Positions 7,042 through 37,628 of a stretch of DNA of 64,000 nt are shown in pieces (position 1 is the first letter of the stretch; each line of letters opens with the position of its first letter). Location: sequence record MN850647.1. The stretch is one strand, 5' to 3'. The notes under the pieces were generated by a model. That model was not told the origin of the DNA. It was given only the letters and a program-made list of their open reading frames with translations, and ran no database searches. The translations under genes and the position numbers were made by a program. This DNA comes from Escherichia phage tootiki.

Positions 7042-7490
7042 TATTCATCTCGCTCGATAATAAATACGCCATTAACACGGTTGCAGTAATCTCTGCCTTC
7101 GTATCTGGCAGCATCACCATATTCTGTGTATTTCTTGACAGAGCAAGGATTCTGACGACGCATGTCAATATCACACTGATTAATACCACCTGCATAGGGT
7201 AGTCCTGAAACAGAGCTTTTAACAAGGTCGTCATAAACAGCTTTCAGAGACTTGAATCTGGAAGAGTTACGTAAATAAACACCACCAACCTTCTCATCTC
7301 CCATCTTGGCTACTTGAAAGAGTAAATATTTAAGAGCTTTGATGGCTGCTTTCTTTTCATCCTTTCCAGATTCTAGATAGAACCACTCTAGCACAGACTG
7401 TTCAATAAGAATTTCATCATTATTGGTGTCTGTGCAGAGGATTCTTACTCTATCAAGAGGGTTATTGGCTGGGTCGCCTGTATAACACAT
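7041..7490 (-). CDS. head completion/adaptor protein candidate
   Basis: 149 aa ORF immediately downstream of major capsid gene. Confidence 0.35.
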   Translation of the reverse strand: MCYTGDPANNPLDRVRILCTDTNNDEILIEQSVLEWFYLESGKDEKKAAIKALKYLLFQVAKMGDEKVGGVYLRNSSRFKSLKAVYDDLVKSSVSGLPYAGGINQCDIDMRRQNPCSVKKYTEYGDAARYEGRDYCNRVNGVFIIERDE

Positions 7491-15873: not shown

Positions 15874-15949
15874 TGGCAGCGGCATAAGGATTTGAACCTT
15901 AATAGGACAGCTTCAGAGACTGCTGCATTGCCAGTTATGCTATACCGCT
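15874..15949 (-). tRNA. tRNA-Gln (anticodon CTG)
   Basis: acceptor AGCGGTA/TGCCGCT, D-stem GCAT/ATGC, anticodon loop CTCTGAA, discriminator G. Confidence 0.65.
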
Positions 15950-29192: not shown

Positions 29193-29200
29193 AATATCTT

Positions 29201-29232
29201 AAGAGCCTCCTTAATTGGGGGCTTTTTAATTT
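29201..29232 (+). terminator. intrinsic terminator at end of plus-strand island
   Basis: AGCCTCC-N7-GGGGGCT hairpin followed by TTTTTAATTTTT. Confidence 0.55.
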
Positions 29233-30348
29233 TTATAAAATTTTATCGGTTGTCCCAACCTCTGGGTCACCATCATATGTGAATAAAATATCTACCCTTC
29301 TTAACAACCTTCTTAATCTTACTCTCTATATAGTTATATAGTACTATATAGTATCTTAGTAACTATCTAGTGGTCTTAATAGCCCTCTGTATAGCCCTTC
29401 TAAATAGCCTTCTAAACACTCTTCTAACAAGCCCTCTTAACCACCTATACAATCACCTTAACCATCCCTCTACACCCTCTTAGAAGCTCCTATACACCTC
29501 TTAATCTCTAGGTTAGCTATGGCACTCTCTATAGGTGTTCACTAGGTAATACTAAGCCTCTATATAGACTGTTTTAACAAACTTAACAGGAATATCTTTA
29601 CAGACCTTACCTCACAAGGTCTAACACGGTACTAACAAGGTATCTTGTAAGCCTGTTTCTACCTGTATTTTTAAAAGACTGTATAGGTAATTATTCAGAA
29701 TTTTAAAATTTTTATAAAATAGGACTATCAAGTCATTTTTTAGGGTCTTTGAAGGAACTGAAAAATATCTGTCTAGGATGTATATCTGCTTGGTAGCCCT
29801 TAACAGCTCCCTTACAAGTACTTTGCAAAATTTTAAAATATCCTTAACAATCTCTTAACAGTTCTCACATCTTCTTAACAACTCTTCAAAGGTCTTAACA
29901 GATTCTTAACAGAACTAACAAGGCTGTAACAGTTTCTTAACAGTTGATACATAATCTTTACAGAGGCTTAACAGATGACTAACAAGAGCTAACAAGTTAA
30001 TTTTAAAGAGTTATTTTGTTAAGATTATTAACAAGTTTCTAACAAGTCTTTAATCTTTTTAACAAGCTATTAACATGGTCACTATCTCTTTCTTATCGTT
30101 CCCTTTCCTTTCTTAGTGATTCTTTAAACATACCTCTTAAAAGCTCTCTATAGCTCTTTATAAGCTCTTTTAAGTCTCTTCCTAGTAGTTACACCCCAAC
30201 TGTACAGATAGCTCTCTATAGGGCTTTACAGGAGCTTTTAAGGCTATGTCAAAGACTCTTACAAGGCTTTTACGTGGTCTTAACAGAGATTTAACAAGGG
30301 GCTAACAAGTTGCTAACAAGTGTCTTAAAAGCATAACTATGTAGGGAT

Positions 30349-30380
30349 TGTTAAGAAATTGTTAAGAAAATGTTAAGGGG
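30349..30380. repeat. three inverted-orientation iterons (TTGTTAAG)
   Basis: TTGTTAAGAAATTGTTAAGAAAATGTTAAGGG; reverse complement of the upstream TAACA iteron. Confidence 0.6.
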
Positions 30381-30393
30381 GCTAGTATTTACG

Positions 30394-30443
30394 TAACTTT
30401 TAAGCTACTTCAAAATAACTTTTAAGCTACTTCAAAATAACTT
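30394..30443. repeat. 23 bp perfect tandem direct repeat (2 copies)
   Basis: AACTTTTAAGCTACTTCAAAATA repeated back to back. Confidence 0.7.
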
Positions 30444-30767
30444 TATAGCCCCCTTCTTAGATATTCACAAGATAACTAATGAGATGATAAAGCTTACACC
30501 CTTATAAGATTCTTTTAAGGCTCTGGGAAGCTTTATAAAGGGCTTTTAATGGTGAGGTAATGCAATCCCTTAAGTTAGGTTAATAAGGTCGTTATAGGGC
30601 TTTATAGAGCGTTTAAATGGTTGCCCTTCCCTTTCGGGTTATGGGCTTATATTTAAGTTGATTTGATAAGGGGCTATAGAGTAAGCTATAGAGTTATTGT
30701 TTTTTAAGGTCTGATAAGATTCTGGAAAGGAAAGGGAAAGGGTTGTATAAGGGATTTGATAAGACGT

Positions 30768-30790
30768 AAAAAAGCCCCATATAAAGGGGC
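30768..30790 (-). terminator. intrinsic terminator after minus-strand small-gene block
   Basis: minus strand GCCCC-TTTATAT-GGGGC followed by TTTTTT. Confidence 0.55.
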
Positions 30791-30829
30791 TGTAAAGGTA
30801 TCTGGGGCTATTTAGCCCCGTTGCGGCGT

Positions 30830-33200: not shown

Positions 33201-33275
33201 TTTAGGATTTAGTGGTAAAGCTCTTTATCTGGGGCTTACTTTATCGAACTATAAGCCCCTTGTAAAGTACTTTAT
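33201..33275. repeat. type B cassette copy 1 (about 75 bp, near-identical to 34004-34078 and 36060-36134)
   Basis: TTAGGATTTAGTGGTAAAGCTCTTTATCTGGGGCTTACTTTATCGAACTATAAGCCCCTTGTAAAGTACTTTAT. Confidence 0.7.
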
Positions 33276-34003: not shown

Positions 34004-34078
34004 TTTAGGATTTAGTGGTAAAGCTCTTTATCTGGGGCTTACTTTATCGAACTATAAGCCCCTTGTAAAGTACTTTAT
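34004..34078. repeat. type B cassette copy 2
   Basis: near-identical to 33201-33275. Confidence 0.7.
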
Positions 34079-35662: not shown

Positions 35663-35747
35663 TTTTGAATCTCCAATTTAGGATTTAGTGGTAAAGCTCT
35701 TTATCTGGGGCTTAAGATATCAACTTTTAAACCCCATGTAAAGTACT

Positions 35748-36041
35748 TTATTTGTTAATTTTCAGCTTTGCATAACTTCTCATTGTACGAATGGTGGATG
35801 TTAATGCTACGCGTCTAATGTATGCCTTTTTCGTGTATACATTTGTCTTCCCGATAGTGTTTACACATGTAAAAAGGTTTATCGGTGAATTTTTTAACTT
35901 CAACTGTTTATCAGCCTTCACGCCCCACCTTACAGCAGATTGTTTTCCGTTGTCAACCACTTTCCCGCATAACTTTTTAGCCATAACGCGAGCGTCATCA
36001 CGAGTTTTTGCAGCAATTACAACGTTTTTGATAATAGCCAT
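35748..36041 (-). CDS. hypothetical protein
   Basis: start moved from leader TTG to ATG (MAIIK). Confidence 0.45.
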   Translation of the reverse strand: MAIIKNVVIAAKTRDDARVMAKKLCGKVVDNGKQSAVRWGVKADKQLKLKNSPINLFTCVNTIGKTNVYTKKAYIRRVALTSTIRTMRSYAKLKINK

Positions 36042-36059: not shown

Positions 36060-36134
36060 AGGATTTAGTGGTAAAGCTCTTTATCTGGGGCTTACTTTAT
36101 CGAACTATAAGCCCCTTGTAAAGTACTTTATTTA
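36060..36134. repeat. type B cassette copy 3
   Basis: near-identical to 33201-33275. Confidence 0.7.
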
Positions 36135-36334
36135 TCGTAGTAGTAAATTGCTGTCTGTCTTGTAAACTTCTTAGTATTTCTTGTCAGATAGCAATTAGAA
36201 TTAATAGCCGTTTCTACATAGTTGCAATAGTCAGCTTCTGATATTCTAGACCATACGCCACAGATTTGCATGTAAAAACGTTTTACCTTTGTGTGAATGT
36301 TAGTTGTAACCATCAATTCGCGACTGTACAGCAT
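36128..36334 (-). CDS. hypothetical Cys-containing small protein
   Basis: 68 aa; conserved leader upstream. Confidence 0.45.
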   Translation of the reverse strand: MLYSRELMVTTNIHTKVKRFYMQICGVWSRISEADYCNYVETAINSNCYLTRNTKKFTRQTAIYYYDK

Positions 36335-36584
36335 TTTTAGATTCTCCAGTTTAGGAAGTGGGCTTGATTGCCCGTCTGATGCAGATATTAGATAACTATA
36401 CTCAAAGAGTCAATAGGAATTTTAAAAATATTTTTTGCAAAAATTGTAATGAAACGGGTGCGCGCGACTACCACAAAACAGAACTACAATCAAGAATTAT
36501 TTTTCAATCCGCTACAAATTTTTCTGTTGACTTTTATTTCCAGATGTGGTAGCCTTGTGAGAAATGGCGACATCCCCACCTGTA

Positions 36585-36780
36585 CCCACCTACCTGCACA
36601 ATTCTAAAATGATTTTTCTTGCCCGACCTGAGCGGGGTCTGCACGTTTTGAAAATGAAAAAGCTCTTTGGAGATTACCTGCACAGTTTAAAAATGAATTT
36701 TCTCTTTGGAGTTCAAAATTCTCTCTACAGATTTCTCTACAGAACTCTACCTGCACAAATCTGAAATGAAAAAGCCCTCC
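36585..36780. repeat. direct repeat array (ACCTGCACA box with AAAATGA(A/T)TTTTC, 3-4 copies)
   Basis: copies at 36591, 36675, 36748 with degenerate copy at 36638; repeated TCTTTGGAG. Confidence 0.6.
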
Positions 36781-36842
36781 TTACCTGAAAAATTTACCAG
36801 ATAAGAAAGGCTTAGGCTATTGTGAATATCCTACAGAGTTTC

Positions 36843-37628
36843 TTAGTTCTTTGCGTCTAAGAAGGTAACTTCTGGTGAAGAGAAAACTGTCTCGATATCC
36901 TCATCAGTTCTTGCATAGATATAAGTATCTGCATCACTGCCAAATGTTACTGCAATCCTGTGATTGCTCTTCGACAGGTGGGTAACTAGAGCGTTACTCA
37001 GAGACATCTTTTCAACCGGAGGGTTACTTTGATGTATCTTACCTTTTCTTCGTCTGAAGAGGGTAACTGCGTTATCTGTGAACACTGCTACACCTGCAAA
37101 GTATTCTGGTTCACAGTAGTTCTTCCAACCTGAGCGTAACTTGTGGTACATCTCTCCTTCGTAGACATAAAGATACACATCTACACTCTTCATCACCTGA
37201 TTAATGATAACTGTGACGGCTTGAGGGTCTAGCCCACCGATACCTGCACCAATCATAGGTAAACCAACCTTCTTCAACTGGTTGACTTCACAGTATCTGT
37301 TAAGCTGCTTCAAAGATGACTCTAAAGCACTGTATCGGGCATCTTTACCAGTCTTAAGCTGAGTGTAAAGGTTAGCTATACGGCCTTGTTCTAAACGTGC
37401 TACAGAGAAATTACCCAGTAAATTTTCACAGGGTTTGTGACCTATACCACCTGCATAGAGGTAAACTTCTGTATCGGTCTCATATGCTTTTGGGTAAAGT
37501 TTAGAAATCTTGTCAGCGATACCTACACCCATTAAATTCATACAGTTGCAACCGTGACCAATAATATCAAACTTACCTTTATCAAATGCTGAGAAGATAT
37601 CCCCATTGATGATTTTTACAATACCCAT
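36843..37628 (-). CDS. macro-domain-like protein (ADP-ribose binding or hydrolase candidate)
   Basis: 261 aa; NGDIF, DIIGHGCNCMNLMGVGIA and LPMIGAGIGG resemble macro-domain GDIT, NAAN..GGGV and ISTG.YG motifs. Confidence 0.45.
   Translation of the reverse strand: MGIVKIINGDIFSAFDKGKFDIIGHGCNCMNLMGVGIADKISKLYPKAYETDTEVYLYAGGIGHKPCENLLGNFSVARLEQGRIANLYTQLKTGKDARYSALESSLKQLNRYCEVNQLKKVGLPMIGAGIGGLDPQAVTVIINQVMKSVDVYLYVYEGEMYHKLRSGWKNYCEPEYFAGVAVFTDNAVTLFRRRKGKIHQSNPPVEKMSLSNALVTHLSKSNHRIAVTFGSDADTYIYARTDEDIETVFSSPEVTFLDAKN

Follow-up and report, generated by a model that had tools for sequence, protein, structure and literature searches.

Direct-repeat arrays that bind proteins are a known kind of element, and the O-binding repeats of the lambda origin (ori), the type I repeats of P4 ori and crr and the 43-bp repeats of F sopC would appear, as iteron and operator systems, to be comparable to the element analysed here, an array of four direct repeats in a 64-kb stretch of the genome of Escherichia phage tootiki (sequence record MN850647.1), the whole of which is referred to as the window. 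Like these systems, the array seems to consist of conserved boxes of ~20-28 bp which share one orientation, are unique, non-coding and adjacent to a promoter, and keep a fixed spacing between half-sites; unlike them it has a period of 37-45 bp and one 73-bp gap instead of 20-23 bp, no adjacent initiator gene, partition gene or unwinding element, and a spacing that drifts by 2-4 bp between lineages. The type III antitoxins ToxI, TenpI and CptI and the pseudo-ToxI of phage PhiTE resemble the array in their direct repeats of 36-45 nt, in an AA^AU-type site on the plus strand of each unit, in an upstream promoter (predicted for the array) and in offering a phage-borne precedent. Likeness in sequence amounts to the 9-mer GTGCAG(C/G)TA in enterobacterial ToxI and to TGCAC-N7-AAATGA in two Lachnospiraceae arrays, the two resemblances being on opposite strands, but in the array pseudoknot stems are lacking, the copies are not uniform, and neither a plus-strand terminator nor a toxin partner nor a host antitoxin of near identity was detected. 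Clusters of DnaA boxes (oriC, datA) offer a further comparison: the first half-box of the array in Kolesnikvirus and in an uncultivated 88-kb phage (L057) matches the DnaA-box pattern TTATNCACA at 6-7 of eight positions, in tandem and in the same orientation, whereas in the genus of the window it matches at just five and the second half-box is unrelated to DnaA binding. The PeSL elements of T4 and the 57-bp and 39-bp repeats reported in the Felix O1 genome paper (PMC3185647) are, like the array, conserved non-coding repeats at the boundaries of early small-gene cassettes; these modules, in contrast, are promoters with hairpins scattered singly over the gene boundaries, while the array is a single cluster with a unique motif and no promoter or hairpin character. 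Finally, aba, a DNA-based anti-BstA immunity element (PMC8585504), is a short non-coding phage DNA element with direct repeats and acts as DNA, but it is unrelated in sequence and sits within the defence gene of a temperate phage, and the array is not known to have a partner in defence.

Four direct copies of TGCAC(A/G)-N6-AAAATGA-W5, a bipartite box of ~28 bp, make up the array, a conserved, non-coding and probably cis-acting element at 36591-36776 (Table 1; all positions are those of the window unless a locus, given as L and a number, or phage M7 is named). Units 1 and 3 have TTTTT as the A/T run after AAAATGA, and units 2 and 4 have AAAAG. An earlier note on the same DNA, made from the sequence alone, had described direct repeats at 36585-36780, and these are real, lie at those positions and stand far above chance by repeat search, shuffles and weight matrix. 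The note had counted three to four copies with 75-85 bp spacing; there are exactly four, with TGCAC cores 45, 39 and 73 bp apart, and the longer spacing had arisen because the degenerate second unit (GTCTGCACG, 36636-36672) was overlooked. Likewise TCTTTGGAG, which was said to recur with each box, is present in units 2 and 3 and has only those two copies. The repeat search returned families of 29-34 nt with an identity of 65-86% between copies, and Tandem Repeats Finder reported nothing in the array, which is thus not a strict tandem repeat, the filler between units being unrelated. The composite TCATTT-N4-10-GTGCA occurs four times, every time in the array, against 0.5 expected, and none of 100 shuffles reached four. 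A weight-matrix scan of the window gave 35-42 bits at 36591, 36636, 36675 and 36748, with the next site at 14 bits and a shuffle maximum of 8.8, so that the array motif is found nowhere else in the 64 kb.

Table 1. Position of the repeat units and of the flanking features in the window.
Feature	Position	Strand	Description
First gene of the small-gene block	36128..36334	-	68 amino acids; PHROG 5293
Predicted strong sigma-70-type promoter of the small-gene block	36385..36413	-	TTGACT-17-TAATAT; A/T-rich upstream tract; conserved
Second strongly conserved non-coding block	36475..36534		…TCAAGAATTATTTTTCAATCCGCTACAAATTTTTCTGTTGAC…; entropy 0.19
Predicted sigma-70-like promoter into the array	36527..36555	+	TTGACT-17-TAGCCT; predicted start ~36560-36562
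Variable G/C-cluster cassette	36556..36590		Between plus-strand promoter and unit 1; entropy 0.93; C-rich on the plus strand here
Unit 1	36591..36619	+	TACCTGCACAATTCTAAAATGATTTTTCT; TGCAC core at 36595; weight matrix 41.6 bits
Unit 2	36636..36672	+	GGTCTGCACGTTTTGAAAATGAAAAAGCTCTTTGGAG; degenerate first box; TGCAC core at 36640; weight matrix 35.1 bits
Unit 3	36675..36711	+	TACCTGCACAGTTTAAAAATGAATTTTCTCTTTGGAG; TGCAC core at 36679; weight matrix 37.2 bits
Filler of the 73-bp gap between units 3 and 4	36722..36742	+	TCTCTACAG twice, 12 bp apart
Unit 4	36748..36776	+	TACCTGCACAAATCTGAAATGAAAAAGCC; weight matrix 41.8 bits
Predicted intrinsic terminator of the macro-domain operon	36772..36813	-	17-pair stem with G-U pairs, then TTTCATTTCA
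Macro-domain 'phosphatase' gene	36843..37628	-	261 amino acids; Pfam Macro domain at residues 25-141; PHROG 335; always precedes the array

The window belongs to a Felix O1-like phage of the genus Felixounavirus, and a 701-bp query around the array matched 288 phage records, the top ones with 95-98% identity; phages of Escherichia, Salmonella and Shigella in the genus Felixounavirus made up most of them. Across 23 distinct aligned sequences of Felixounavirus and Mooglevirus-like phages the mean column entropy was 0.14-0.17 bits for the units and 0.45-0.93 bits for the spacers between them (0.45 for the moderately conserved filler between units 3 and 4), while the adjacent macro gene had 0.40, 0.32 and 0.66 bits at codon positions 1, 2 and 3. 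The array is the best-conserved DNA in its neighbourhood, beyond the second codon positions of the macro gene, and on this comparison its units are under selection on their primary sequence. Conservation extends to Mooglevirus, Kolesnikvirus and L057, and the core common to all lineages reads, on the plus strand, TGCAC(A/G), a fixed 7-nt gap, AAATGA and five A/T. The bases which flank this core vary by lineage, with TACC-TGCAC in Felixounavirus and Mooglevirus and CTA-TGCAC in Kolesnikvirus and L057, and the CTCTTTGGAG box is limited to the former two genera, with TTGCCAGACC in its place in Kolesnikvirus. The layout recurs in Erwinia phage M7 (Kolesnikvirus), whose four units, among them ATGCACAAATCGAAAATGATTTTTCTTGCCAGACC as the ortholog of unit 1, are spaced by 39, 37 and 37 bp, and in its complete 84.7-kb genome the motif occurs in these four copies at the orthologous locus and nowhere else. 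When 33-40 kb of the window was compared with M7 by blastn, the array and the 57-bp promoter and hairpin modules accounted for all matches except two coding-region stretches, and no alignment of the macro gene was obtained. In L057, which has no DNA match in the phage collection and whose syntenic proteins share only 30-42% identity with those of the window, five units (CTATGCAC-N7-AAAATGA…) lie directly downstream of a macro gene of 148 amino acids. Copy number in the relatives ranges from three to five, and unit spacings drift by 2-4 bp between lineages (45/39/73, 45/41/75, 45/39/77 and 39/37/37). Arrays of this pattern, sought in IMG/VR, in metagenomes and in GTDB (one genome per species), turned up in Ounavirinae-like phages only, and the order of macro gene, terminator, array and promoters is fixed in every lineage. 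Since it is kept in M7, in the distant L057 and in all lineages, and since the arrays occur only in these phages, the link between macro gene, terminator and array is, as far as these genomes indicate, old and constant.

The array lies within a 508-bp gap between the macro-domain gene and the first small gene, and the neighbouring genes are all on the minus strand. In the direction of their transcription the gap is ordered as terminator, four units, a variable G/C-rich stretch, a conserved block of ~60 bp and the strong promoter. The G-U pairs of the terminator stem form only in the minus-strand RNA, the structure is annotated as a terminator in phage Barry, and the T-run of unit 4, read on the minus strand, is its T-tract. 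The two predicted promoters are back-to-back, with the array directly downstream of the plus-strand one and 180-370 bp upstream of the strong minus-strand one, the tract of which, at 36385, is the fourth least stable 60-bp window in the 64 kb. This agrees with the earlier note, in which the array had been placed upstream of the minus-strand small-gene block: it is upstream of the strong promoter predicted for that block. The -35 hexamer of the plus-strand promoter is invariant across Felixounavirus and Mooglevirus and its spacer varies; the counterpart in Kolesnikvirus is TTGACG-18-TATACT, where both hexamers are invariant and the spacer is variable (M7, L031:1291-1320). A consensus promoter scan detected no sigma-70 promoter within the units of the window, and just one M7 unit scored 9/12. 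A general class of phage promoter was rejected because the motif is confined to this one locus in the 64 kb of the window and in the whole M7 genome.

Our preferred reading, which we hold as a tentative one, is that the array is a protein-binding operator or roadblock controlling transcription at this boundary; from these sequence features we infer protein binding, the nature of the binder and the regulatory outcome. Two invariant half-boxes with a fixed 7-nt gap of variable filling are the classical pattern of a site in double-stranded DNA, and a set of binding sites would be the most economical account of the fixed-gap bipartite box, the conservation at the level of sequence, the uniqueness and the restriction to one subfamily. 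Each copy would be read as primary sequence by a sequence-specific DNA-binding protein, which is probably encoded by the phage because the bases flanking the core differ by lineage; the confinement to Ounavirinae-like phages likewise fits a lineage-specific binder better than a general host factor. An operator or roadblock is proposed because the array sits where read-through from the macro operon and the plus-strand transcript would converge, upstream of the strong early promoter. When occupied, the array could stop or regulate both the antisense plus-strand transcript and the macro-operon read-through, and early transcription would in this way be insulated and timed at the boundary. As the spacing drifts between lineages, the sites probably act singly and not as a rigid face-of-helix assembly. 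The suggestion of an enhancer or operator array made in the earlier note is supported in part: the element is non-coding, conserved in primary sequence, unique in the genome and upstream of the minus-strand promoter, which would fit a protein-binding array of this type.

Several observations weigh against an operator or roadblock. No candidate binder was found, and the neighbouring small proteins are without Pfam domains; by-eye comparison with the sites of IHF, CRP, Fis, marbox, sigma-E, sigma-54, ops and boxA yielded nothing consistent across lineages. The first downstream gene is not conserved between lineages, the 2-4 bp drift means that strict face-of-helix cooperativity is not conserved either, and the sites overlap neither promoter, which is unusual for simple operators. 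The conserved plus-strand promoters predicted to face the array suit a role at the level of RNA equally well, and the literature searched contains no experiment and no transcriptome for this phage group.

Because such predicted promoters are present in the window (TTGACT-17-TAGCCT) and in a second genus, Kolesnikvirus (TTGACG-18-TATACT), an RNA decoy was retained as a rival, and an unlikely one in our judgement: the array would be transcribed from the promoter next to it as a plus-strand non-coding RNA of at least ~250 nt, and its four linear A-rich motifs (…UGCACA-N6-AAAAUGA…) would sequester, as a decoy or sponge, an endoribonuclease or RNA-binding protein such as a ToxN-like type III toxin or Hfq. 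ToxN cleaves at AA^AU or GAA^AU (PMC8860590), and (G)AAAAU on the plus strand of every unit fits these published sites. The period of 37-45 nt resembles that of type III antitoxin repeats, for which the pseudo-ToxI of phage PhiTE is a precedent (PMC3475682), and enterobacterial ToxI shares GTGCAG(C/G)TA with the units, though on the opposite strand; of eight toxIN loci read from enterobacterial plasmids, four have AGGTGATTTGCTACCTTTAAGTGCAGCTAGAAATTC as their 36-nt ToxI repeat, in one case with a single base deleted. A scan of GTDB with a double-unit pattern also hit two genuine toxIN loci with 37-nt ToxI repeats containing TGCAC-N7-AAATGA (L079 and L084), but this likeness is imposed by the search pattern itself. 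The copies in the window, moreover, are not a uniform tandem (gaps of 45, 39 and 73 with unrelated filler), no plus-strand intrinsic terminator was detected, the hairpin terminating on the minus strand only, and the commoner Felix O1-type allele has a poor -10 hexamer (TAAGAG). Nor do the units keep stems or the potential for a pseudoknot: of the plus-strand helices with at least three pairs, none is present in at least 85% of 81 distinct units, and the minus-strand pairings which reach this threshold are all short (three pairs) and A/T-rich. Folding of the plus-strand RNA is no better than that of shuffles (z -0.3), while the z of -2.1 on the minus strand is due to the terminator hairpin, and against the Rfam 15 covariance models no family was matched, the best hits being eukaryotic microRNA and small nucleolar RNA families with E values of 0.2-3.9, far under the gathering scores. 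A conserved structured RNA was rejected on these grounds (no plus-strand helices in the units, folding equal to shuffles, no Rfam family). Blastn searches of 5,426 E. coli genomes and 72,556 plasmids returned no match to the array and hence no sign of a cognate antitoxin in the host, and the place of the toxin gene that adjoins a ToxI array is taken here by the macro-domain gene and small genes, only the 9-mer being common with ToxI. A ToxI mimic was accordingly rejected, as the stems are lacking, the two resemblances are on opposite strands and there is no host cognate. A wider proposal, to which we give a low probability, is that the array, as plus-strand RNA or as DNA, might be a phage-borne decoy which, through multiple copies of a recognition motif, soaks up a host defence nuclease or DNA-binding defence protein and forms one counter-defence module throughout Ounavirinae with the macro gene, for which an anti-ADP-ribosylation role would be conceivable; candidates would be a ToxN-type endoribonuclease cutting AA^AU, or a DNA target like that of aba. 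If true, this would add a widespread nucleic-acid counter-defence. That the array encodes a small plus-strand protein with repeats of 13-15 amino acids (…YLHxxKMxFLxG…), through the open reading frame of 66 amino acids at 36564-36764, is hardly credible. In most lineages two or three units are spanned by the open frame 'CTG CAC … AAA ATG', some spacings are divisible by three (45, 39, 75), the orthologous unit translates as H(N/K)SKMIFLARP in both the window and M7, and some depositors have annotated the reading frame here. Its entropy of 0.375, 0.432 and 0.379 at positions 1, 2 and 3 nevertheless shows no codon periodicity, as compared with 0.40, 0.32 and 0.66 in the macro gene; the 81 distinct substitutions are split 23/27/31 over the three codon positions, two of them creating stops, and at 0.30 the share of synonymous changes does not exceed that of the remaining two frames (0.23 and 0.30). 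Spacings of 41, 43 and 37 break the frame in Mooglevirus, L017 and Kolesnikvirus, Barry and L002 have premature stops, starts (ATG, TTG, or none) and N-termini are not conserved, there is no Shine-Dalgarno sequence and no PHROG family match, and the Felix O1 RefSeq record no longer lists a gene at this position. The 66-residue frame was thus rejected as a gene on codon-position and synonymous/non-synonymous counts despite its recurrence, and neither it nor the like calls in database records should be annotated as genes. The view of the earlier note, that the region is without convincing genes and that this reading frame is made from the repeats, is borne out: across homologs the open frame recurs, but without the coding signature of a conserved gene, and the array is non-coding.

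Rivals which, like the operator or roadblock, act at the level of DNA were also weighed. The array could be a replication origin, or one of several, with the units as iterons for a phage initiator and with activation by transcription from the adjacent promoters, and this we regard as distinctly unlikely. In its favor are the four genome-unique direct repeats of one orientation, the length and conservation of the non-coding gap around them, its divergent promoters and G-clusters, an A/T-rich tract at a distance of 150-200 bp, the separation of units 1, 3 and 4 by 84 and 73 bp (~8.0 and 7.0 helical turns), and, in L057, an array which abuts nine TGTTAA repeats, the hexamer of an origin-like region at 29.2-30.8 kb of the window. 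The array itself, in contrast, lies at the 37th-97th percentile of stability depending on window size, with no adjacent element of low stability; a period of 37-45 bp is atypical for iterons, no initiator gene is adjacent, and the 29.2-30.8 kb region is a far better candidate. Cumulative GC skew turns near 22 kb and 29 kb and not at 36.6 kb, which is a weak test because skew tracks gene orientation here. As to the second iteron set proposed by the earlier note, several unique direct repeats are indeed present, but they are not in low-stability DNA or at a skew turn, and the origin is better sought at 29.2-30.8 kb. DnaA bound to a dnaA box can block transcription, and the boxes might thus be host DnaA boxes, in a cluster which blocks transcription or titrates DnaA; we give this very little probability. 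In M7 the four boxes read, on the plus strand, CTATGCACA (three) and TTATGCACG (one), each with seven of the eight specified positions, and a fifth site brings the number of such sites to five in 135 bp against ~1 per 930 bp genome-wide; in L057 the boxes are CTATGCACA and CTATCCACG, and the difference between boxes falls at the N position. The window and all Felixounavirus and Mooglevirus relatives have ACCTGCACA, however, which at five of eight is under the cut-off of six of eight used to list DnaA-box-like sites, and the second half-box AAAATGA plays no part in DnaA binding. The conserved function can hardly depend on DnaA, because the hosts share one DnaA specificity and yet the box of the genus has only five of eight positions. 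We find it just as improbable that the array is a functionless relic, made of decayed duplications of the terminator tail or of recombination linkers and kept alike by gene conversion during co-infection. Unit 4 is the T-tract of the terminator and the terminator tail of M7 resembles a unit, the region borders cassettes which are swapped between lineages (the two-allele spacer, the variable first gene), and the small-gene block is rich in repeated promoter and hairpin modules. A relic, on the other hand, would not remain more conserved than second codon positions, nor outlast divergence to 30-42% protein identity with the half-site gap fixed, and the motif is absent from every other cassette boundary of the window and of M7.

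The Felix O1 genome paper states that the temporal control of transcription and the start of replication are unknown, and the direct repeats which it lists do not include this array (PMC3185647). The comparative Felixounavirus paper does not mention it, and no description of it was found in the literature searched; on the sequence evidence it would be a new example of a protein-binding direct-repeat array. Felix O1-like phages are classic typing and biocontrol phages, and no other non-coding sequence near the start of their early small-gene block is as conserved as the array. Its survival where neighbouring proteins keep only 30-42% identity suggests that it marks a control point for a phage-specific factor, and identification of the binder would open the early regulatory circuit of the subfamily; the practical gain is modest and concerns the gene annotation of the 66-residue frame and its like.

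The exact 9-mer GTGCAGGTA (the reverse complement of TACCTGCAC) occurs four times in the 64 kb, always on the minus strand and between 36591 and 37249, and two 9-mers like it lie within the macro gene at 37241-37249 and 37520-37528, in the same frame (xGT GCA GGT Axx). In these in-gene copies the codons GGT GCA GGT AT specify the two glycine loops, G(A/V)GI, of the macro domain. Relatives keep them, and one is retained even by a macro gene of 40% identity which has no array. Their coding constraint suffices as an explanation, they therefore need not be extra binding sites, and they were rejected as such. The C-terminal 120 residues of the macro protein (~142-261; window 36846-37200) have no Pfam match and are absent from the 148-residue macro protein of L057.

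The cassette between the TTGACT hexamer and unit 1 (36556-36590) exists in two alleles, and the window has the rarer one, which is C-rich on the plus strand. The commoner allele (L048, L067, L125 and others) reads GGGGAGAGGGGGAG-TAA-GAGGGGGAGAGGGG, which as a perfect homopurine mirror repeat is a motif of the triplex (H-DNA) or G-cluster kind; in L121 one of its units is duplicated. The ~140 nt which follow the plus-strand promoter in Kolesnikvirus hardly vary and contain a hairpin GAGGGGCU…AGCCUCU, in which one substitution preserves pairing on the plus strand only; this promoter region may be the gene of an antisense or small RNA. The 57-bp repeats of Felix O1 correspond to dispersed modules of ~57 bp at 33217-33273, 34020-34076, 35693-35749 and 36073-36129 (PMC3185647), one per small-gene boundary. 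Each is a TTTACA-17-TAAAGT promoter around a GGGGCTTA…TAAGCCCC hairpin, similar to the promoter and stem-loop cassettes of T4, and the modules are also conserved in M7 at 78287, 80697 and 82096. Phage JLBYU32 (L116:335-523) and some close relatives have an extra gene of ~190 bp (62 amino acids) between the early promoter and the first small gene. Copy number of the array is unchanged in these relatives, and array expansion was rejected as the cause of the 190-bp size difference in favor of the extra gene.

The region at 29200-30800 comprises ~1.6 kb without an open reading frame of at least 50 amino acids and contains more than 25 CTTAACAG/CTAACAAG (TTAACA) repeats, many of them 11 bp apart. 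It lies at the turn of the GC skew and holds the least stable DNA of the window (29.0-30.4 kb); it is a strong candidate for a replication origin or a divergent control region, and its repeats are probably the first iteron set which the earlier note had in mind. The nine TGTTAA repeats of L057 (L057:600-760) are ~10-14 bp apart and adjoin the array, for which reason there may be a functional tie between the array units and this repeat class; we take them to resemble ArcA-type direct repeats. An exact Chi octamer, GCTGGTGG, lies between the unit clusters of the same phage (L057:905-915). For phage UAB_Phi87 the genome end has been mapped experimentally, with direct terminal repeats of 608 bp (PMC4837284), and its left end aligns to position 15911 of the window, beside the transfer RNA cluster. 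The physical genome end is on this basis probably inside the window, and a packaging or terminal-repeat signal was rejected for the array, which is ~20.7 kb away.

The two toxIN loci recovered by the pattern scan (L079, ~7110-7190 on the minus strand, and L084, 555-1145) are from Lachnospiraceae metagenome-assembled genomes, and each combines a ToxN gene (Pfam E ~1e-50) with a promoter, a terminator and a pair of 37-nt ToxI repeats (AGGTGATGCACAGCCYTWAAATGAGCGAGT…). Five further GTDB contigs (L088, L103, L081, L094 and L106) carry long tandem arrays of a 21-nt hairpin unit, e.g., TTGCACTTCGTGCAAATGATG, and arrays of this type occur in gut Clostridia, in Prevotellaceae and in one Caldilineaceae genome.

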